Virus record (IMG/VR): IMGVR_UViG_3300045988_047237
Location: 1-55,457 of that record
Direction: 5' to 3' (one strand)
DNA length: 55,457 bases
DNA from: a virus
Shown here: positions 15,444-51,183 of the stretch, piece after piece
Position numbering within the stretch: position 1 is the stretch's first letter
Layout of the letters: every line of letters begins with the position of its first letter
Translations under genes and position numbers: made by a program
The notes under the pieces: generated by a model
What the model was told of the DNA's origin: nothing
What the model saw: the letters and a program-made list of their open reading frames with translations, nothing else
The model's database searches: none

Positions 15444-16811
15444 ATGGAATGTGTTGCTTATATAAGAGTTTCGACAGAAAGACAAGCGGAGGAAGGTTAC
15501 GGACTTGAAAGCCAAAAACGTGACATTGACGAATACTGCCGTAAACATCAATTGATTATCAAGGAATATTATGTCGATGCCGGATTATCCGGAATGGAAA
15601 TGTCAAAACGTGTTGAACTTCAAAGACTTATATCTGATATGGCTAAAATTGATGTTATTGTTGTCTACAAGCTAGACAGACTTGCGCGTGATACCGTGGA
15701 TGCACTGTATATGATTGAAAAAATCTTTACGCCAAAGGGAATTTGTGTAGAAAGTGTTCACGATTTCGCTAGGTACGAAACACCGCAGGATAAATTCCAA
15801 ACTCAGGTTATGGCTGCCGTAGCAGAGTATGACAGAAATACTATGATGCTCCGTATGCGCGGTGGAATGTTGGAACGTGTTAAGAGAGGTTTTTGGATGG
15901 GCGGTGGCAATTTGCCATTCTGCTATTCGTATGACAAAGAATTGGGTATTTTAATACCAATTCCGGAGCGCGCCGAAACGGCAAGGAATGCACTTGAATT
16001 GTATATCAATGGGTATTCTGACGGCCGTATCGCTAGAATTTGCCATTACAGCGGTGAGCCGGTAGCGCGGAAAATCTTGACAAGTGTAGTAAACATCGGA
16101 ATGATACCGTACAAAGGCAAGGTGTATCAAGGCAAACACGAACCGATATTTGACATTGAACGCTACGAACTTGCGCAGGAGATCAGAAAGTCAAGGCACG
16201 ATGCCAAGAGTTGGATTGCACACCCTACCAACCTTTTAACCGGGTTGTGCTATTGCGGTGTATGCGGTTGTGCGATGCGCTATCAGAAATGGGGACAAAA
16301 AGAGGACTCTCCAAGGAAGATATATTGTTGTTCAAAGAACATAGACCTTGATTATCTTCCAAATTATAACCACGATTGCGACAGCAAACCGCAATGGGCG
16401 TCAGACATTGAAAAGCAGGTCGAGAAACAGATGCTTGAAATATCCGTCAATCTGTCAAAATACAAGCCAAAAGAAAAGGAAACGAAATTACAGATAATGC
16501 AGTCACAATTAAGCCGTGAAAAAAACAAATTAAAACGACTGTATATTCTTTATGCCGAGGGCAATGACACTGTAATTGAGTTGATTAAGCAGGCGGAAGA
16601 GGAAGTAAAACGTATTACCGCTGCAATTGAAGAGGAAAGCAAAGCGGCAAAGAACACGCAGAAAAAAGAATTTGTCTATGACAATATAAAAAAGCTTGCC
16701 GACGTTTGGGACAAAATCGACAAGCAAACCAAAAATAAGATACTTAAAACTATAATATCTAAAATTGTTATTGTCAATGACAACATTGAAATTCAGTTGA
16801 AGAATTTTTAG
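15444..16811 (+). CDS. int: large serine recombinase (integrase)
   Basis: N-terminal resolvase catalytic domain (AYIRVSTERQ...GLSG...YKLDRLARD), recombinase domain, Cys-rich zinc ribbon (CYCGVCGC...CC) and coiled-coil C-terminus. Confidence 0.92.
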   Translation: MECVAYIRVSTERQAEEGYGLESQKRDIDEYCRKHQLIIKEYYVDAGLSGMEMSKRVELQRLISDMAKIDVIVVYKLDRLARDTVDALYMIEKIFTPKGICVESVHDFARYETPQDKFQTQVMAAVAEYDRNTMMLRMRGGMLERVKRGFWMGGGNLPFCYSYDKELGILIPIPERAETARNALELYINGYSDGRIARICHYSGEPVARKILTSVVNIGMIPYKGKVYQGKHEPIFDIERYELAQEIRKSRHDAKSWIAHPTNLLTGLCYCGVCGCAMRYQKWGQKEDSPRKIYCCSKNIDLDYLPNYNHDCDSKPQWASDIEKQVEKQMLEISVNLSKYKPKEKETKLQIMQSQLSREKNKLKRLYILYAEGNDTVIELIKQAEEEVKRITAAIEEESKAAKNTQKKEFVYDNIKKLADVWDKIDKQTKNKILKTIISKIVIVNDNIEIQLKNF

Positions 16812-27010: not shown

Positions 27011-27268
27011 ATGATGTATAACAGTTTGGCAGAAATGCAGAAATCTTATAGAGACCGTGTTAAGAATATTCTTGATAAAGACACCACTTTGCCAGCAAGT
27101 AAACGTGAAGTATTGCAGATATTTGATTACCTGGCAGAACAACACGCGGATGATGTTAGAGCTTGTAACATTCTTGATGAGGTTGTTAAGGCTAATGTCA
27201 GCCGCAGGAAATATAAAAAGATTATGCTTGCGGCGGCTAAAGAACTTATGAATAGGGGCATCGTTTAA
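27011..27268 (+). CDS. hypothetical protein
   Basis: 85-aa ORF after aaaggag; its 3' end overlaps the tRNA-Gln start. Confidence 0.5.
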   Translation: MMYNSLAEMQKSYRDRVKNILDKDTTLPASKREVLQIFDYLAEQHADDVRACNILDEVVKANVSRRKYKKIMLAAAKELMNRGIV

Positions 27269-27324
27269 TGGCAAGACACGGCACTTTGACTGCCGGGATA
27301 TGGGTTCAATTCCCATTGCTCCCG
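27254..27324 (+). tRNA. tRNA-Gln (anticodon UUG)
   Basis: Manual cloverleaf: acceptor 6 of 7 bp, D stem gttt/agac with GG loop, anticodon stem cggca/tgccg with loop cTTTGac, T arm atggg-ttcaatt-cccat. No encoded CCA. Confidence 0.75.
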
Positions 27325-27327
27325 TTC

Positions 27328-27366
27328 GGGAAGAGGTTCAGAATGGACGGCTGAATGGCTCTTCCC
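27328..27366 (+). other. long interrupted hairpin directly after tRNA-Gln
   Basis: 8 bp 27328-35/27359-66 plus 5 bp 27337-41/27351-55; no T-run. Confidence 0.5.
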
Positions 27367-27640
27367 CCACATGATATATCTGTATTCCATATTTATCATG
27401 AACCCCCTTTCTCCGCTAGGACTATTCTGTTAAGAACCGTGAGAGACGGTTCGGCGGGGTTTGTTCGGACAGAACATTAAGATGTCTGTTTGTGTGCGTA
27501 TCCCACTGCACACAAACGGCATTGTGGAAATCAACCCGTGGTTTTATTTGTTTCCCACGTTCCGTGATAGGCGGATGACATATTATAACTCCTCTTAAAA
27601 GTATGTGGTGTGCAAACGTACGGTTGTTTGCATACCGGCG

Positions 27641-27720
27641 CAAAACGTAGCTTAATTGGCAAAGCAAAGGTTTTTTCATCCTTTCTGACCTTGATGTCGG
27701 TCCGACTCCGGCCGTTTTGC
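27641..27720 (+). tRNA. tRNA-like element with aberrant anticodon arm (pseudo-tRNA or noncanonical tRNA)
   Basis: Perfect 7-bp acceptor caaaacg/cgttttg, U8, D arm gctt-aattggca-aagc, T arm gtcgg-tccgact-ccggc (C at position 55). The anticodon region folds only as 5 bp with a 9-nt loop ttttttcat, or 5 bp with a 16-nt loop. Confidence 0.4.
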
Positions 27721-27727
27721 TTAAAAC

Positions 27728-28330
27728 ATGATTATCTCGGTGCAGATAGGTTTTTCAGCCTTGCCGAGACACGCGAGAAAACGAGATAGGCATAATCGGG
27801 ATACCGGATATGCTAATATCTTTTGCTGTACTGTGAGGTACGGCAGGGAGACGGAAACCGTCAACAATGCTTGCGTGGTGTATCATCATAGAGAAGCCAA
27901 GGGCAGAGGACTTGTGGCTGTGAATAATAGACGCCTACGGTGTAGGAATAATCCGTTGAAGTTCGTGGAATGAGAGACCACGGACAAATCACGGAAAATC
28001 TCAAATTAAGCAGTGTGCCTTGAAACCGGAGAAATCCGGATATAACACAAGTAACTCGTTAAAGTAGCGGTATGGCACGATTTCATTCTAACAATTATCG
28101 AATGGCGAACACGATAATATTCCGAAAGAACCGTGAAATTTGTGGGTATCAATCCCACGTGTGCTTTGAAAGCGGCAAGAAGCCTTAGGGCCGCTCCCAA
28201 AGGCTCGGACTTGTTGCCACAGTGGCAGAATATGGCTGTATGTATGGTGAATAAAGAGAAATCTTAATTATGTTTTAGTTTTTGGAATGGCAAGATAGGT
28301 ATTGTAGTAGTAGGGACTTGCCGTTCCAAA
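27728..28330 (+). ncRNA. candidate large structured ncRNA (~600 nt; GOLLD/ROOL-like context)
   Basis: No RBS-supported ORF. Ten or more helices, including a GAAA-capped stem 28026-30/28035-39, long-range 28015-19/28074-78, and an H-type pseudoknot 28171-76/28190-95 with 28181-86/28200-05. Flanked by tRNAs. Confidence 0.5.
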
Positions 28331-28334
28331 ATAT

Positions 28335-28417
28335 GCAGATGTGGTGTAATGGTATCACAGTAGCTTGCTAAGCTATCCGGCAGAAATGCCGTCAAGGTTC
28401 GAGTCCTTGCATCTGCG
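28335..28417 (+). tRNA. tRNA-Ser (anticodon GCU), type II
   Basis: Acceptor gcagatg/catctgc, anticodon stem gtagc/gctat with loop ttGCTaa, long variable arm ccggcagaaatgccgtc, T arm caagg-ttcgagt-ccttg, discriminator G. Confidence 0.85.
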
Positions 28418-28490
28418 CTTTCACATATAAACGAAATGGAAATATAGTTGTTGGTTATCTGTATTATCCCAAAACCATCTATGTGTGAAT

Positions 28491-28691
28491 TGATGTGTGG
28501 CGGAATGGGTAAACGCTAATTGATGGTTAAGAGAACGGTGTGCGACAAGGATTGCTAGAACAAGTCTGGTAAATAGCTGTAAGCAATTACACCAATAAAT
28601 CCGTTAGAAAATAAAAATCCATTTATCCCTATTCGTAGGTGCAGACTAACTGACGGAATCTCATGTGTGGTTCAAATCCACACCACATCAA
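28491..28691 (+). ncRNA. tRNA-Leu-like acceptor/D/T framework whose anticodon and variable arms are replaced by ~147 nt of structured RNA
   Basis: tgatgtg-t-g-gcggaatgggtaaacgc (Leu-type D arm) at 28491-516. tgtgg-ttcaaat-ccaca then cacatca-a at 28666-91. Insert has helices taattg/caatta (28517-22/28584-89) and cacc/ggtg, plus the motif aggtgcagactaactgacgg. Confidence 0.35.
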
Positions 28692-28818
28692 GCGGTCGGG
28701 TAGCTCCCGAATAAGCAGGCGTTACAGTAGTCCCTGCTGAAATAATTAAAATGCTTGTGTGGCTAGTTTTAACTCGAATATAAAAAGGGTTGGAGTTGGT
28801 CACACAAGAAACTGTACA

Positions 28819-28856
28819 ATGGATAGTAGTTCAGTCGGGAGAACACCCACTGCGGT
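28819..28856 (+). other. tRNA 5'-half-like fragment (acceptor strand and D arm only)
   Basis: tggatag-ta-gttc-agtcggga-gaac-a-cccac... has a canonical D arm but no matching anticodon, T or acceptor 3' strands before the next RBS. Confidence 0.4.
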
Positions 28857-28871
28857 AAAGGAGACAGTTAT

Positions 28872-29108
28872 ATGCTCAAAAGATTGGCGAATTGGTATAT
28901 TCGCAGGAAAACAAAGAATTTAACCCGAATACCGCTTTTTACAATGACGTTTAACTACCGAAAATACAAAGCAGAGGGCAAAAAGGACAGCTGCACATTT
29001 TATTGTCATCCTGATATTGTGAATGACGAGTATGTGAAAGAAAAGCTGTCTGATGTTGTTGATTATATCCGAGATAACTATGATTTGGATATATTTACAA
29101 GGATTTGA
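28872..29108 (+). CDS. hypothetical protein
   Basis: 78-aa ORF after aaaggaga. Confidence 0.5.
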   Translation: MLKRLANWYIRRKTKNLTRIPLFTMTFNYRKYKAEGKKDSCTFYCHPDIVNDEYVKEKLSDVVDYIRDNYDLDIFTRI

Positions 29109-32451: not shown

Positions 32452-32554
32452 ATAATATATTACCGCCGCATAAGAGGTTTGCGGTGCTAACCTAGAAAAA
32501 TTATAGGCAGAGAGGTCTATAAGCATCTCTGCAAAAGCGGAGGTGCTTTTCTTT

Positions 32555-34315
32555 ATGGCTAGTCAGAGCCTTGTTTCCACAGTAAACGGATACGAAAACT
32601 ACATAGAGCGAAATGGAATAGATGAACAAGTCATTGACGCGTACATAGAAGCCGCAAAAGTGGCCGTAAATGGCGAAAACGATATAATGTATGGCTTGCG
32701 GTTGGCAGACCGCTCTAAGGGCATAATAGAGCGTTTCTGCAAGGAAAGGACCGGCGGTAGAATACTTGACCTTGAAAAATACAGCCAACAACATGAAGAA
32801 AAATACAGCCTTGTTGATGACTATTACAAAATTCTTCTGATTGAAGCACCTTATCGTTTTGAAAGCTTCATGCTATACATGGAAAAGAACAGACCGGTAG
32901 AAGAGAGATTTTATCAGCCTAGAATAAATCCATTACGGCAGGTAGCACAGCTTATTCAAGATCTGTACGATGATGTGCTTGATGAAGGAATGGTGTTTTG
33001 CCCCGGACGAATCGGTAAGACACAAATAGTCAAAATGGGTAATCTGTGGTTCGGCTCTAACAGACCGGAACGGTCTAATCTGTATTCGGCATATTCGGAC
33101 AAAATTACGGGTGGTTACTATGACGGCATCATAGAAATGATTACAGACCCAACATACACATATGCTGAAATATATCCAAACATAGTTGAGAAAAAGTTAG
33201 TCACTGATGGAAAAGATTTGACAGTAGACCTTATCCGTAAAAAGACATACCCTACATTTACCATGCGAAGCATTTACGGAACACTGAATGGTGCTTGTGA
33301 CTGTGACGGGCTTGGAGTTTATGATGATTTATTCAGCGGTATTGATGAAGCATTGAGTGAAGACAGGCAAAATACTGTATGGGGAAAATTCGACAACAAC
33401 TTTATGCCGAGAATTAAGCCTGGAAAGGCTAAATTGTTGGGGATAGGAACACGTTGGGCGAAAAAGGACGTTCAAGGTAGACGTTTAGACCTATTACAAA
33501 ATGATCCTGAATACAAAGGCATACGGCACAGAGAGGTTATTATTCCTGCACTAAATGAAAACGGAGATAGCAATTTTGATTATCCGTATCATTTGGGATA
33601 TACAACTCTTGATTACAAAAGACGTATGGCATCTTTTGAGAACAATGACGATATGGCATCATGGTTTGCGCAGTATCAACAGGAGCCTATTGAAAGAAAA
33701 GGTCAGATGTTCAATGTCGATACGATGAATTTCTTTAATCCGGCAGAACTTGAAGGAATAAGACCTGATAGGATATTTGCAGCTAATGACCCTGCTTATG
33801 GTGGCGGTGATTTTGTATCAATGCCTATCTGCTATGAGATTGACGGAGAACATTATATCACTGATGTTGTCTACAATGACGGTGATAAGGAAATTACCAT
33901 ACCGGAAGTTACTTCACGAATGGAAAGGCATTTAGATAAATTTAATAATAAGACAGCAGAAGTCCATTTTGAGGAAACAAAGACAACATCGGCATACCGT
34001 ACAGATTGTGAAAAGATATGGGAAAAAGACGGATACCCTATTAACACAAGTCATGATCCGGCAGACAATCAGACTGCAAAAATGGATAGAATCAAAAATC
34101 ATGCTCCAGACATACGAAAACTTCATTTTGTGGACATGAAATATCAAACAAAAGAGTACAGAAAGTATTTTCAAAATATTTTGTCTGCTACTTTTGAAGG
34201 GAAAATGAAGCATGATGACGGGATAGACTCTACGGCACAATTATGTGACATGATTTACGGAAATAAAAGAATGGCAAAAGCTGAAGCTATGTTAAACCCA
34301 TTTAGGAGGTATTGA
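32555..34315 (+). CDS. terL: terminase large subunit
   Basis: Walker-A-like CPGRIGKTQ, ATPase then nuclease-domain order, C-terminal DDGIDS acidic motif. Size and position ahead of the portal gene. Confidence 0.8.
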   Translation: MASQSLVSTVNGYENYIERNGIDEQVIDAYIEAAKVAVNGENDIMYGLRLADRSKGIIERFCKERTGGRILDLEKYSQQHEEKYSLVDDYYKILLIEAPYRFESFMLYMEKNRPVEERFYQPRINPLRQVAQLIQDLYDDVLDEGMVFCPGRIGKTQIVKMGNLWFGSNRPERSNLYSAYSDKITGGYYDGIIEMITDPTYTYAEIYPNIVEKKLVTDGKDLTVDLIRKKTYPTFTMRSIYGTLNGACDCDGLGVYDDLFSGIDEALSEDRQNTVWGKFDNNFMPRIKPGKAKLLGIGTRWAKKDVQGRRLDLLQNDPEYKGIRHREVIIPALNENGDSNFDYPYHLGYTTLDYKRRMASFENNDDMASWFAQYQQEPIERKGQMFNVDTMNFFNPAELEGIRPDRIFAANDPAYGGGDFVSMPICYEIDGEHYITDVVYNDGDKEITIPEVTSRMERHLDKFNNKTAEVHFEETKTTSAYRTDCEKIWEKDGYPINTSHDPADNQTAKMDRIKNHAPDIRKLHFVDMKYQTKEYRKYFQNILSATFEGKMKHDDGIDSTAQLCDMIYGNKRMAKAEAMLNPFRRY

Positions 34316-35072: not shown

Positions 35073-36509
35073 ATGAACACAATGTATTTACAAGACCTTG
35101 TTAAAGGCTGCTATGGTAGAAAAATTGCATATACGAACATAGACAAGATAACACCGGATAATGTCGTTAAAGTAATCGGAAGCACTATTGGAATTTTTAA
35201 TTGGAATAGAACGATTATAAAATATCTGTGGGATTACTATAAAGGTGATCAGCCGGTGCTGTACAGGCAAAAGCTGACAAATGCGGATATAACAAATAAA
35301 ATTGTAGAAAATCACGCATATGAGATTGTCCAATTTAAGGTAGGCCAAACCTACGGCGAGCCGGTTCAGTTCATAAGCCGCAAAAATGATGAAAATATCA
35401 ATAAAGCAGTTGATATTCTCAATGATTTTATGACAGATGCTAACAAACAAGAAAAAGACATAAAAGCCGGAGAATGGCAATCCGCCACAGGAACATCGTT
35501 TAAAGCTGCTCAACCTAAAGCAGGGAAAATACCGATTAGAATTGTAGCACCTACGCCTATGAACACCTATGTTATCTATAACGAAAACACCGAAGAACCA
35601 ATACTTGCGGTGCAGGAACTCAAAGATGCAGACGGGAAACGGTATAAAATGGCTTTTTCAGACACAATGTCCTTTACTGTTGCCGATAGCAAGGTTATTA
35701 GCACTAAACTACACACATACGGCGAGGTTCCCATTGTTGAGTTTCCGAACAATCACGAAAGAATATCCGATATTGAGCTTGTTTCGGGAATGCTTGACGC
35801 AATTAATAATATGCAATCAAACAGAATGGACGGCGTGGAACAGTTTGTACAATATTGGGTTAAGTTCGTTAATTGCGAAATTGACGAAGAAAACTTTAAG
35901 AAGATGAAAGAAAGCCACGCATTGGTTGTTAAATCAATTAATAAAGATAACAGGTCCGATGTCGACATAATGACACAAGAACTTAATCAAAGTCAATGCC
36001 AAGTTGCTAAAGACGATTTATGGAATAACACATTGTCTATATTGGCAATACCAAACAAGCAAGGAAACACAGGTGGAGATACACAAGGAGCAGTAGAATT
36101 AAGAAATGGATGGGACTTTTCAAAGACAAGAGCAAAACTGAAAGACCCACTTGTTAAAACATCCGAGAAAAGACTTGCTACCGTCGCTCTTAATATTTTG
36201 CGACTTGCAGGAATTGATTTAAAACTATCGGTTACAGATTTTGATGTTCAAATAAATCACAGTCCGCAAGACAATATGTACACTAAAGCGCAAACATTGG
36301 TTGTGCTATTACAAGCCGGAATACATCCGCTTGTGGCAATTAAAACAGTTGGCCTTTGGGGCGATGCGGAAAAAACATATGTATTATCTAAACCTTATCT
36401 CGACAACCTTTACAAAACTATTAAAGACGCAGAAGAACAAGAGAAAAAGGCACAAGAGATAGTTACACAATTAAACAAACAGCAGAATAAAACAGCTACC
36501 GAGGAATAA
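35073..36509 (+). CDS. portal protein (SPP1 gp6-like)
   Basis: 478-aa ORF directly downstream of terL with the usual portal size and order. Confidence 0.8.
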   Translation: MNTMYLQDLVKGCYGRKIAYTNIDKITPDNVVKVIGSTIGIFNWNRTIIKYLWDYYKGDQPVLYRQKLTNADITNKIVENHAYEIVQFKVGQTYGEPVQFISRKNDENINKAVDILNDFMTDANKQEKDIKAGEWQSATGTSFKAAQPKAGKIPIRIVAPTPMNTYVIYNENTEEPILAVQELKDADGKRYKMAFSDTMSFTVADSKVISTKLHTYGEVPIVEFPNNHERISDIELVSGMLDAINNMQSNRMDGVEQFVQYWVKFVNCEIDEENFKKMKESHALVVKSINKDNRSDVDIMTQELNQSQCQVAKDDLWNNTLSILAIPNKQGNTGGDTQGAVELRNGWDFSKTRAKLKDPLVKTSEKRLATVALNILRLAGIDLKLSVTDFDVQINHSPQDNMYTKAQTLVVLLQAGIHPLVAIKTVGLWGDAEKTYVLSKPYLDNLYKTIKDAEEQEKKAQEIVTQLNKQQNKTATEE

Positions 36510-37567: not shown

Positions 37568-38641
37568 ATGTTAATAAATGATGTATTAGATAGTAAATCT
37601 ATTGCTTTATCGGCAACAGAAGATGCTAGTAACCAGATACCATACCTTGGATTACAATGGTTTCCAGAGAGAAAGAAACAGGGACTTGACTTAAGTTGGA
37701 TTAAGACACATAAGGGCCTTCCGGTGTCACTTGCTCCATCTAATTTTGACTCTATCCCGACACTTAGAGCAAGAGAAGGATTAAGCAAAGAGAAAACACA
37801 GATGGCATTTTTCCGCGAGGGAATGACCATAGGCGAAGAGGAAATGCTTGAAATTGAGCGTATTCAGTCCGCTGATGACCCTTATCTTGCAAGCGCCTTA
37901 TCAAGTGTATATGACGATACAAACACACTTGTAAGTGGCGCAGAAGTAGTTCCGGAGCGCATGAGAATGTCACTTCTTGCGACTAATGCAGGTCATCCGG
38001 TAATTGCTATCGAGAGCGACGGCGTTCAGTATGCTTATGATTACGACAAAGACGGAACGTATGCAGCTAATCACTATGCAAAGCTTTCCGGCACAAGCAT
38101 GTGGAGTGATACAGCAAATTCAAAGCCGCTCACAGACCTTAATAACGCAAGGAAAAAACTGCAAAAGCAGGGCAAGATTGCTAGATATGTGCTTATGAAC
38201 AGCAACACATTTCAGTATCTCCTTGATAATGCGCAGATTAGGAATTCTATTCTTGCGCAGAACCTTACAGCAACAATTGAAGTTGATGATGACACAGTGA
38301 TCTCGGTAGTTCAGAAAAGAACAAAACTTACAATCGTATTATACGACAAGATGTACACTGGTGATGATGGCAAGGATCAGTACTTCTACCCAGACAACAA
38401 GGTTACGCTTCTTCCGGAAGGCAAACTCGGCAGCACTTGGTTTGGAACTACACCAGAAGAGAGAACAGCAAGGCAGGTAGCCAATGTTGACGTGACTACA
38501 TATGGCACTGGTATTACAGTTGCTACAAAGGTAGAATACGGTCCGCCTATGAAGATGTCTACGTTTGCATCGGAAGTCGTACTTCCGTCATATGAAAATA
38601 TGGACAGCACATTTGTTTATGAGGTTCATAGCGAATTGTAG
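37568..38641 (+). CDS. major capsid protein (capsid protein E-like family)
   Basis: 357 aa; position after the scaffold gene; length and sequence style of the lambda-E-like family. Confidence 0.8.
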   Translation: MLINDVLDSKSIALSATEDASNQIPYLGLQWFPERKKQGLDLSWIKTHKGLPVSLAPSNFDSIPTLRAREGLSKEKTQMAFFREGMTIGEEEMLEIERIQSADDPYLASALSSVYDDTNTLVSGAEVVPERMRMSLLATNAGHPVIAIESDGVQYAYDYDKDGTYAANHYAKLSGTSMWSDTANSKPLTDLNNARKKLQKQGKIARYVLMNSNTFQYLLDNAQIRNSILAQNLTATIEVDDDTVISVVQKRTKLTIVLYDKMYTGDDGKDQYFYPDNKVTLLPEGKLGSTWFGTTPEERTARQVANVDVTTYGTGITVATKVEYGPPMKMSTFASEVVLPSYENMDSTFVYEVHSEL

Positions 38642-48027: not shown

Positions 48028-51000
48028 ATGAGAACTGCAAGCACGGGTTTCATAGCGGCGGCAACAACCGACTATGCACGATACTACGGCAAATTTACCG
48101 TAGGCGAAACAGAATATACAGTACCGCTTACCGACTTAAAGGTAACGGCATCAGAAAATGGAAGTAGTGACTTAACGATAGGTAACGCACAATCGTCAAG
48201 CATTACTTTTTCTATTTATGAAGATACAGTTGACATCGAGAATAGAGAAATGATCTTATTCGAGGGATTAGAGGTATCAGAGGGCAACATAGAATATATC
48301 CAAATTGGAATATTTAAGATAACATCTGCCACGGCGGAAGAGGGAAAAACATCTTACACCGGATATGACCGTATGTACAGCAGTATGGAAATGACGTATG
48401 TGTCAAAACTGAAATATCCGAACAAAGATATTAACATCGTCAAGGAGATATGCACACAAGCCGGTATCACGTTTGTTGAAAGCACAATGGACGATAAGAC
48501 AATATCCATTGCAACCGCCCCAAAAGGATATACAAGGCGCGAAATGTTAGGCTATCTGTCGGCAAGGCAGGGTAAAAATGCTGTCATCAACTCACAAGGT
48601 CAGCTTGAATTTCGGTGGTACAAAGACGCTGATTACACCATACGTCCGACCAAATACTATGAGAATGGCTTAAAGTTCACGACAAGCAAGGCTTTTAAGG
48701 TTGAAAAGATAGTATGTGAGGTTGCTACGGATAACGACAGCAAAACCCTTACAAGCGGTAATGGTACTATGGCAATCAACATATCTAATCCGTTTATGAC
48801 GCAGGCGGTTCTTGATGCCGTATACAAGAAGATAGGCGGTTTTACTTATAGACCGCTTACGGTTGAATGTCTCGGCGATTGGCGACTTGAAGTTGGGGAT
48901 ATTGTCAAAGTAACATTTGACGGCGTAGAGTATTCCGCCCCGATTACAAGTATTGTTTACGATTGTGACGGCGGTCTTAAATGCTCGATTGAGAGTTGTG
49001 GACAGTCTGACACAAATAATTCAATCAATCCCACGGGTCCGATAACATCTCAAATGCAAAGGCTGACAGCGGAACTCATAACAGCTAATCAGGTTATCGC
49101 GACCAAAATATCCGCGGAGCAGGCAGACATCAAGTACGCAACGATTGCTAATCTTAACGCGCTATCGGGCAAATTTGACACGTTAAGCGCAAAGGCAATA
49201 ACTACGGATAACCTAGCCGCCGCGACCGCTAAATTAGGCTATATGACAGCAGAACAAGCGGATATTAAGTACGCGAATATCGAATTGACAAATATCAACA
49301 CCGCAAACGTGGCTACATTGTTTGCAAATGTCGGCTTGATTGACCGTGCAACCGTAGTTGAGGGGCATATAACCGGTTTTCTCGACAGTGTAGAGGTAAA
49401 CGCAAATAAGATAACCGCCGGAACACTTGTTGCGGATAGAATACTTCTCAAAGGTTCGGAAAGCGGATTGCTTTATGCACTTAATAATCTTGGCGAACTG
49501 ACAAGCACTACGGTTGACAGCTTAGACGGATATGTACTCACTGACCGTACAATCAATGCGGATAAGATAGTCGCAAACAGCATAACCGCAAATGAACTTG
49601 ATGTCGAGAACATATTCGCTGATAATGCGGTAATCTCAACGATTACTTCACAATCGGCATTTATCAACGCTATCAGCACAAATAGTGTGGTTGTAGGCAT
49701 AAAGAATACCGTAGACAATTTATCCGTGGGTGACCGGAATTTACTCCTTGCGACTAAGAATTTCGGGAATATATCTACATCAAATGGCGATTGGCTAATG
49801 TCCACAGATGATGATGGATTTACAGTCGCAAGTCGAAATGGTAATGGTAATTGGAATGCTATACGAACAATTACTGACGTTGACGCTACGAATAATGCAC
49901 AATCCGATAAGCAAGTGGTTATCACCATTGACGCGAAAGCGGATGACCTTGCGACCTATCCGAAAAACTATCTCGTAGCTTGTGAAGTTTATGGCTCAAA
50001 TGACGGATTTAAAACGTGGTATCGCGCAGTATATACAAATTCTTATTTTGACGGTTCGGGGAATAATTTAAAGTATTTAGCCGGCACAAGAGAAAACAAT
50101 AAATGGTGTACATTAAGTTTTACTATGACATTGGATAAACTGACATCCGGTTCGTGGGGAACGTATAACGAATACCGTTATGGAGTAGCCGTATACACAA
50201 CAAATAATAACACTAGCCATACAATCAGTGTTCGTAAATTCAAAATGTCATTCGGTAATGTTCCGTCAGATTGGTCGCCTGCACCCGAAGATATATCGGT
50301 TGAGAATATCTATTCCGCAAACACCACAACGATTGACGGTGGGAAAATTACAACCGGCAGTATTACGGCAGACAAGATAAGTGTTGATGATTTAAGTGCA
50401 ATCACGGCTAAAATCGGTTCGTGGAGCATAACAACGAACAAAATTTATGCCGGAGATGCCGAAACCGGAACAGCAGTTATGCAAAGACCGACTGTAAACA
50501 CAAAATGGGTATTTGCGGCCGGTGGTAAAGACCATACTAATTACGGAGATTGTCCGTTTAGAGTCGATAAAGAGGGCAACCTTTACTCAACAAGTGGAAC
50601 AATCGGCGGATTTACAATCGGTGCTGATTATTTAAGAACAAAAGCAGACAGCCGTGGCTATAAATTTGGAATGAGTTCTAACGCACAGCCGACCGGAATA
50701 TGTTCGTATATCGGCAAAGAGGGTACGGACTATGACTATGTATATAGGCTTGGTTGGGACGGCAGTGTGGAAACATCTAAGCTGACAGCCGGTGGAGCAG
50801 TATTCGGAAGTGGGCGTGTTTATTTTGAAGCAACCGAAAAAGCATATCTGACAAAGGGCGATAGCATACCTATCGTATTTTCTACCGGCGGATATATAAC
50901 CGGTGGCGGTCAGACAGTAGCTTTTTTTCTCCCGACAAGGCTTATTATCGGCGCGAGCAAAGCAACACTCTCATTTACATCAAGTGAGGGTGTTAGGGTC

Positions 51001-51183
51001 AGACAAGGTGGAAAATATTGTTATGGCTCTACGGCTGAAACGAATGTCAGACCAAGGTCTCAATCAATATCGTTAAGCGGAGAACCAGGCGTGAATGTGC
51101 AATTAGTAATGCCGAACTCAACGAATGCAATCAACAATGATGCTTGTGGCGTGTCATTAACCGGCACACTTAAATTATCTTAG
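48028..51183 (+). CDS. tail tip / minor structural protein (prophage tail endopeptidase-like N-terminus, fibre-like C-terminus)
   Basis: 1051 aa; position after the tape measure; repeat-rich middle (ITADKI.., ITANEL..). Confidence 0.65.
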   Translation: MRTASTGFIAAATTDYARYYGKFTVGETEYTVPLTDLKVTASENGSSDLTIGNAQSSSITFSIYEDTVDIENREMILFEGLEVSEGNIEYIQIGIFKITSATAEEGKTSYTGYDRMYSSMEMTYVSKLKYPNKDINIVKEICTQAGITFVESTMDDKTISIATAPKGYTRREMLGYLSARQGKNAVINSQGQLEFRWYKDADYTIRPTKYYENGLKFTTSKAFKVEKIVCEVATDNDSKTLTSGNGTMAINISNPFMTQAVLDAVYKKIGGFTYRPLTVECLGDWRLEVGDIVKVTFDGVEYSAPITSIVYDCDGGLKCSIESCGQSDTNNSINPTGPITSQMQRLTAELITANQVIATKISAEQADIKYATIANLNALSGKFDTLSAKAITTDNLAAATAKLGYMTAEQADIKYANIELTNINTANVATLFANVGLIDRATVVEGHITGFLDSVEVNANKITAGTLVADRILLKGSESGLLYALNNLGELTSTTVDSLDGYVLTDRTINADKIVANSITANELDVENIFADNAVISTITSQSAFINAISTNSVVVGIKNTVDNLSVGDRNLLLATKNFGNISTSNGDWLMSTDDDGFTVASRNGNGNWNAIRTITDVDATNNAQSDKQVVITIDAKADDLATYPKNYLVACEVYGSNDGFKTWYRAVYTNSYFDGSGNNLKYLAGTRENNKWCTLSFTMTLDKLTSGSWGTYNEYRYGVAVYTTNNNTSHTISVRKFKMSFGNVPSDWSPAPEDISVENIYSANTTTIDGGKITTGSITADKISVDDLSAITAKIGSWSITTNKIYAGDAETGTAVMQRPTVNTKWVFAAGGKDHTNYGDCPFRVDKEGNLYSTSGTIGGFTIGADYLRTKADSRGYKFGMSSNAQPTGICSYIGKEGTDYDYVYRLGWDGSVETSKLTAGGAVFGSGRVYFEATEKAYLTKGDSIPIVFSTGGYITGGGQTVAFFLPTRLIIGASKATLSFTSSEGVRVRQGGKYCYGSTAETNVRPRSQSISLSGEPGVNVQLVMPNSTNAINNDACGVSLTGTLKLS

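Follow-up and report, generated by a model that had tools for sequence, protein, structure and literature searches.

The window analyzed here, a 55,457-nt stretch of viral DNA, contains a long spacer between tRNA genes that is rich in potential helices, raising the question of whether this spacer specifies a large structured RNA and, if so, to which family it belongs. An initial annotation had proposed an ornate non-coding RNA in a GOLLD- or ROOL-like context. ARAGORN and the Rfam tRNA model bore out the setting that it had described, a tRNA-Lys(UUU)-like gene at 27640-27721 and tRNA-Ser(GCU) at 28335-28418 with 613 nt between them. Scanning the whole window against Rfam 15 with cmscan yielded a single match besides three tRNAs: ROOL (RF03087) at 27712-28285 (+), with 363.1 bits (gathering score, 99.1) and E = 2e-83. 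The match spans the untruncated model (positions 1-574 of 574), and the architecture is that of a complete RNA, not a fragment. The features of the locus are as follows.

27253-27325 (+), tRNA-Gln(UUG), first gene of the ncRNA island (ARAGORN; Rfam tRNA, 54.6 bits)
27640-27721 (+), tRNA-Lys(UUU)-like gene, immediately 5′ of ROOL (ARAGORN; Rfam tRNA, 44.1 bits)
27722-28277 (+), ROOL RNA body, 556 nt, delimited by the two strands of the closing helix P1 (cmscan RF03087; helices in 33 sequences)
27722-27733 (+), 5′ strand of P1, 12 bp with 28266-28277 (direct reading)
28079-28128 (+), variable linker, loop of stem 28067-72/28129-34 (low conservation in the cmscan alignment)
28172-28217 (+), 3′-domain arm: outer stem 28172-79/28210-17, inner stem 28182-88/28198-204, loop GGGCCGCUCCC
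28280-28331 (+), 15-bp hairpin, 28280-94/28317-31, with a 22-nt loop, outside the Rfam model (direct reading, MFE fold, alignment)
28335-28418 (+), tRNA-Ser(GCU), downstream flank of ROOL (ARAGORN; Rfam tRNA, 59.9 bits)

Given a ROOL match of 363.1 bits, the candidate belongs to one of the two families named at the outset, and we identify 27722-28277 (+) with near certainty as a ROOL RNA gene, a member of the known family of large structured phage and prophage ncRNAs described by Weinberg et al. 2017 (PMC5737381). The locus is an ordinary full-length member of this already described family, not a new class. The Infernal comparison suggested by the initial annotation was run as a permissive Rfam scan of 27200-29000 at E ≤ 1, in which the GOLLD, OLE, HEARO, raiA, RNase P, tmRNA, and group I/II intron models gave no match; the only additional match was RcsR1, at chance level (E = 0.75; 18.9 bits, gathering score 60). 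GOLLD (RF01998), which matched neither at its gathering score nor at E ≤ 1, was thus excluded, and no tmRNA was found by ARAGORN. The family traits named in the initial annotation (Firmicutes prophages, rumen, RNA cages, no known function) agree with the ROOL papers. Taken whole, the explanation developed below, from ROOL identity through biogenesis in a tRNA array to cage and role, is one that we hold with high confidence.

The phage location had also been called correctly, as had the tRNA adjacency: structural and integrase genes are present in the window, all of whose long ORFs lie on the + strand, and tRNAs stand on either side of the RNA. Location in a phage near tRNA genes is itself a ROOL family trait. 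PHROG matches identified an SbcC-like nuclease and the following genes.

15444-16811 (+), large serine integrase
32543-34315 (+), large terminase
35073-36509 (+), portal
37568-38641 (+), major head protein
48028-51183 (+), tail protein

The head protein is 90% identical to that of a Lachnospira intestinalis prophage and 73% identical to those of Acetatifactor and Roseburia MAGs. The structural and integrase genes and the relatives of the head protein mark the window as a temperate siphophage with gut Lachnospiraceae as hosts. Its RNA island separates the early/replication genes from the packaging module.

To describe the fold, the consensus structure from the cmscan alignment was transferred to window coordinates, with 159 consensus pairs mapped. 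The automatic alignment was one base off in P1 and in two other stems, where the apparent mismatches vanish on direct reading; in this mapping all ROOL consensus helices are intact. The 613-nt spacer folds with an MFE of -206.6 kcal/mol, compared with -161 ± 9.6 for shuffled sequences (z = -4.7; 0 of 20 shuffles as good), far more stably than expected by chance.

To collect related loci, we searched with AATAGACGCNNNCGGTGNNNGAATAATCC, a conserved motif of the window ROOL, and retrieved 32 IMG/VR phage contigs together with three genomes, namely Clostridium sp. AF27-2AA and the MAGs of a Dorea and of a member of the Lachnospiraceae. Identity to the window ROOL was 93-98% in 12 loci and 58-72% in the remainder, and all 18 of the 18 related loci tested were ROOL, with 230-392 bits. 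The homologue in Clostridium sp. AF27-2AA is ~72% identical and lies between tRNA-Asn and tRNA-Ser. The Lachnospiraceae MAG also carries, a few kb from its ROOL locus, a type II hammerhead ribozyme (L037 7290-7358; 49 bits against a gathering score of 37).

Pairing was evaluated in an alignment of 33 distinct sequences (the window and 32 related loci), with the partner strand slid by 1-2 columns as a control. The consensus helices were 72-100% paired, compared with roughly 15-70% in the slid controls. P1 (27722-33/28266-77) was 97% paired, with two-sided changes at 5 of 11 positions; such changes were also found at 5 of 6 positions in 27770-75/27872-77, at 4 of 5 in 27850-54/27858-62, and at 4 of 8 in the outer stem of the 3′ domain (28172-79/28210-17, 8 bp, 98% paired). 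The covariation that the initial annotation had proposed to look for is thus present, many positions of the ROOL helices changing on both sides in related loci.

Most of the individual helices proposed from the sequence coincide with the ROOL consensus and are kept or covary among the 33 sequences: 27850-54/27858-62, 27934-38/27942-46, 27964-68/27978-82, 28142-46/28154-58, and 28026-30/28035-39 with its GAAA loop. The helix 27735-40/27764-69 is likewise a ROOL consensus helix, whereas its supposed alternative partner, 27782-88, was only 38% paired. Only one half of a proposed H-type pseudoknot survived: 28181-86/28200-05 is a consensus helix, but 28171-76/28190-95 is outcompeted by the outer stem, since its first strand belongs to the covarying stem 28172-79/28210-17 and its supposed partner is an invariant loop. 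The hairpin 28094-100/28112-18 found no support, as it falls within the variable linker 28079-28128 and is specific to the window lineage. For the proposed long-range pair 28015-19/28074-78, complementarity is conserved (94% paired); UGCC (28016-19) and GGCA (28074-77) are invariant, and the pair consequently gives no covariation signal. It is plausibly one of ROOL's reported tertiary or quaternary pairings. A candidate loop-loop contact, 27801-05/27938-42, was dropped, its bases being invariant and its register wrong. In the 3′-domain arm, the loop GGGUCGCUCCC carries a C at 28191 in the window only; U is invariant there among the well-aligned relatives, the divergent L018 not being comparable at this loop. 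C28191 might alter a loop-loop contact, and if the loop is an inter-subunit contact, the substitution could affect assembly.

This substitution is also what could be cited for a decaying, non-functional relic, since it is a U-to-C change unique to the window in an otherwise invariant loop. We consider a relic highly improbable: the copy is full-length, its 363 bits fall among the scores of the other loci (230-392 bits), its consensus helices are all intact, and the twelve phage relatives at 93-98% identity keep the pairing despite their differences. To a coding function for a small protein, or to another large RNA (GOLLD, intron, RNase P RNA, or tmRNA), we assign a negligible probability. ORFs of 44-81 aa are indeed present on both strands:

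27728-27973 (+), internal ORF, 81 aa, Arg/Cys-rich
28006-28200 (-), internal ORF, 64 aa
28133-28267 (+), internal ORF, 44 aa

However, a Pfam search of these internal ORFs gave no match, and direct reading of the sequence before the ATG of the 81-aa ORF (gttttgcttaaaacATG) revealed no Shine-Dalgarno sequence, in agreement with the earlier remark that no ORF here is supported by a ribosome-binding site. Substitutions in the homologues preserve base pairs, and only ROOL and tRNA score at E ≤ 1, apart from the chance-level RcsR1.

We then considered how the ends of the RNA would arise. In the tRNA-Lys-like gene, T27721 is the discriminator and CCA is not encoded, and P1 starts at 27722. Bacillota RNase Z cuts tRNA precursors that have no encoded CCA immediately after the discriminator. 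Because P1 directly follows the discriminator of such a CCA-less tRNA, an RNase Z cut at the 3′ end of the upstream tRNA would make the ROOL 5′ end. Among the 36 sequences compared, 33 have a tRNA ending 2-4 nt ahead of the conserved AAACAUG of P1, and two of the three exceptions are loci truncated at that point. Seven tRNA identities (Lys, Trp, Met, Gly, Asn, Arg, and Asp) abut P1 across these 36 sequences. The loci had been collected by a motif from the window ROOL, and the abutment rule therefore applies to the branch of the family that they sample (58-98% identity).

On the 3′ side, direct reading shows P1 to be followed by 2 nt, a 15-bp hairpin, 3 nt, and tRNA-Ser. The hairpin, first proposed as 28284-94/28317-27, is real and longer than claimed (28280-94/28317-31). 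It is kept in the alignment of the 12 closest relatives, and in L025 three substitutions preserve its pairing only as G-U on the + strand, which argues for an RNA structure of that strand. In the window lineage (13 sequences, the window and 12 loci) the gap from P1 to the tRNA is 59 nt and is filled by the hairpin; in 10 loci the downstream tRNA starts 2-10 nt after P1. By Rfam coordinates, it lies 0-10 nt from the ROOL end in several loci, starting directly after ROOL in L008 (896 to 897) and L020 (1748 to 1749). About a quarter of the loci have no close downstream tRNA. Scans of the locus for promoters and terminators, which we rated uninformative, found no terminator-like site between ROOL and tRNA-Ser.

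Given this arrangement, ROOL is probably co-transcribed with its neighbors as part of the tRNA array and set free by RNase Z together with RNase P, the latter cutting at the 5′ end of tRNA-Ser to give the ROOL 3′ end. The 15-bp terminal hairpin would be left on that end and should shield the RNA against 3′ exonucleases. Weinberg et al. 2017 had only suggested possible co-transcription with tRNAs (PMC5737381).

The tRNA-Lys-like gene itself is atypical: its acceptor stem has 8 bp, its anticodon loop 8-12 nt, and its variable region ~13 unpaired nt. Its anticodon loop differs in length and sequence even among phages that are 93-98% identical (window, L003, L025, L030, L029, and L006), and ARAGORN calls the anticodon as ttt, tttt, tct, or ctt. 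The gene may encode a decoder modified to evade anticodon nucleases, or it may serve chiefly as a processing handle.

Cryo-EM structures are available for ROOL from env-120, E. faecalis, L. salivarius, and Firmicutes CAG:227; those from env-120 and E. faecalis are D4 octamers ~28 nm across, that from L. salivarius is a hexamer, and the complexes persist at ~10 nM RNA (PMC12286853, PMC12990946, PMC12515178). By homology to these solved members, the window ROOL quite likely forms an RNA-only cage of eight or six copies, in which flat multi-junction monomers would assemble protein-free into a closed shell. The variable linker, which is a disordered segment inside the solved cages (PMC12286853), would face the cage interior (about 28079-28128 in the window). 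Proposals for cargo (tRNAs, ribosomal subunits, and others) are presented as hypotheses only (PMC12286853, PMC12990946, PMC12515178), and the only genetics cited in PMC12286853 is that L. salivarius ROOL is abundant but non-essential. While the phage grows in its Lachnospiraceae host, the cage might sequester some component of the translation or tRNA machinery or serve as its scaffold; such a role, linked to translation or the supply of tRNAs, is possible, and we put it forward tentatively.

The main rival places the function in cis: ROOL would act mainly as a structured spacer that holds the pre-tRNAs on either side to a multimeric scaffold and thereby times their maturation and release, a form of "inhibited storage". 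Such staging of tRNA maturation would account for the tRNAs that abut both ROOL ends in many loci; a review proposes this kind of storage for tRNAs embedded in GOLLD (PMC12990946), and cages remain undisturbed when RNAs, a suppressor pre-tRNA among them, are fused to the 3′ end of ROOL, from which they are displayed radially (PMC12515178). Yet L. salivarius ROOL is a discrete RNA as abundant as 16S rRNA (PMC12286853), about a quarter of the loci have no close downstream tRNA, and the stabilizing hairpin before the next tRNA in the window lineage fits a released, long-lived RNA. We therefore regard a primarily cis-acting function as unlikely and prefer a released RNA that would assemble into cages.

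The RNA island holds a further structured element, downstream of tRNA-Ser:

28491-28692 (+), pseudoknotted RNA of ~200 nt with tRNA-Leu-like ends

Its ends consist of a 7-bp acceptor (28491-97/28685-91), a tRNA-Leu-type D-arm (GCGGAAUGGGUAAACGC), a T-arm (28667-85), and an A discriminator (A73), and a core of ~140 nt takes the place of the anticodon and variable arms. The helices are H2 (GAGA/UCUC), H3 (GGUGU/ACACC), H4 (AUUGCU/AGCAAU), a hairpin H7 (CCUA/UAGG), the pseudoknot H5 (AGUCUG/CAGACU, 28567-72/28646-51), and H6 (CCGUUAG/CUGACGG, 28593-99/28654-60). The six core helices, which covary in roughly 90 phage loci as well as in genomes of Enterococcus Schiekvirus, are kept with differing sequences across lineages, and H5, as AGUCNG/CNGACU, shows all four Watson-Crick combinations at one position. 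None of 500 shuffles reached the observed covariation, and 87% of cells were paired compared with 28-47% in slid controls.

A profile search of the fetched loci located the core in about 90 phage loci, with ~56 tRNA-Leu-like copies and ~33 of a second form, in which a plain helix closes the core and a tRNA lies immediately 5′ of it. In two loci (L110 and L128) a second-form copy lies directly 3′ of ROOL. Unannotated DNA in each of 20 Enterococcus Schiekvirus genomes matches the element with ~72% identity and directly follows an unannotated tmRNA gene within a tRNA cluster; among species-representative genomes the element occurs in only two, both Clostridia. In the Enterococcus phages EA1 and EFDG1 (L001/L002 2646-2996), the unannotated tmRNA gene scores 140-145 bits with Rfam, and the tRNA clusters also contain several sub-threshold matches to YrlA (Y RNA-like).

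Comparison of 28491-28692 with the Rfam 15 families gave no match at E ≤ 10, ARAGORN made no call there, and the RNA was not found in the literature searched. Several assignments were tried and rejected. As a tmRNA-like RNA, its candidate "tag" falls in covarying helices and is not conserved. As a tRNA-Leu with an intron, removal of the insert leaves no anticodon or variable arm, and class-2 copies are not inside tRNAs. The motif AGGUGCAGA..GACGG resembles a group I (IC3) core, but the topology differs and no Rfam family matches at E ≤ 10. A resemblance to a mini RNase P (AAGUCNGG) is without Rfam support. On this evidence we lean toward regarding 28491-28692 as a real class missing from the literature.

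Other parts of the island were also inspected. The best sigma-70-like match, at 28420-28448 (+), is TTCACA-17-TATAGT (10 of 12 positions, a consensus match only), located just after tRNA-Ser and upstream of the 28491-28692 RNA. Non-coding DNA at 28693-28871 (+) is ~75% conserved in many other phage loci and contains the hairpins CGGG/CCCG, GCAGG/CCUGC, and CUUGUGUG/CACACAAG; within it, the segment 28818-28850 (GGATAGTAGTTCAGTCGGGAGAACACCC) looks like a 5′ tRNA half and immediately precedes the ribosome-binding site for the CDS at 28872. The 314-nt spacer from tRNA-Gln to the tRNA-Lys-like gene, 27326-27639 (+), is conserved only in close relatives and has no Rfam match at E ≤ 1, and a sub-segment of ~55 nt near 27403-27461 is ~80% identical in several unrelated phage loci.

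The ROOL gene may belong, as one module, to a phage "RNA island" (27253-28870), a single array from which tRNA-processing enzymes would free several structured RNAs. A functional link between ROOL cages and the tRNA-Leu-like RNAs, for example as cargo or as decoys against tRNA-targeting host defenses, is conceivable and in our judgment rather doubtful.

The ROOL gene itself adds little, since the literature already covers the family, its occurrence in phages beside tRNAs, and its cage structure. The added value lies in the exact boundaries, which are usable as transcript ends for in vitro work, and in the tRNA-abutment rule for one branch of the family: abutment in 33 of 36 sequences, by any tRNA, turns "often near tRNAs" into a testable model of maturation by RNase Z and RNase P. 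Related copies in cultured gut Clostridia such as Clostridium sp. AF27-2AA offer a genetic system for ROOL function, and the neighboring pseudoknotted RNA may be the more novel object in the window.

Compared with the ROOL family at large, the window RNA is alike in helices, conserved junction sequences, variable internal linker, phage location, and tRNA neighbors, and its 556 nt compare with a family mean of 581; no family-defining difference separates this lineage. Its peculiarities are the Lachnospiraceae phage host, the 15-bp 3′ hairpin, the unusual upstream tRNA-Lys-like gene and, in the window itself, one conserved-loop substitution (C28191). GOLLD is similarly a large ornate phage or prophage RNA that lies in tRNA arrays and forms an RNA-only cage, but it is unrelated to ROOL in sequence and fold, measures 700-830 nt in solved members, and assembles as 10-14-mers. 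Stable non-tRNA RNAs freed from tRNA precursors are also known from phage T4 (the species 1 and 2 RNAs) and from vertebrates (MALAT1/mascRNA). Although these are unrelated to ROOL in sequence and structure, they abut a tRNA or tRNA-like structure and have their ends set by tRNA-processing enzymes, and thus offer an analogy to the processing proposed here for ROOL.
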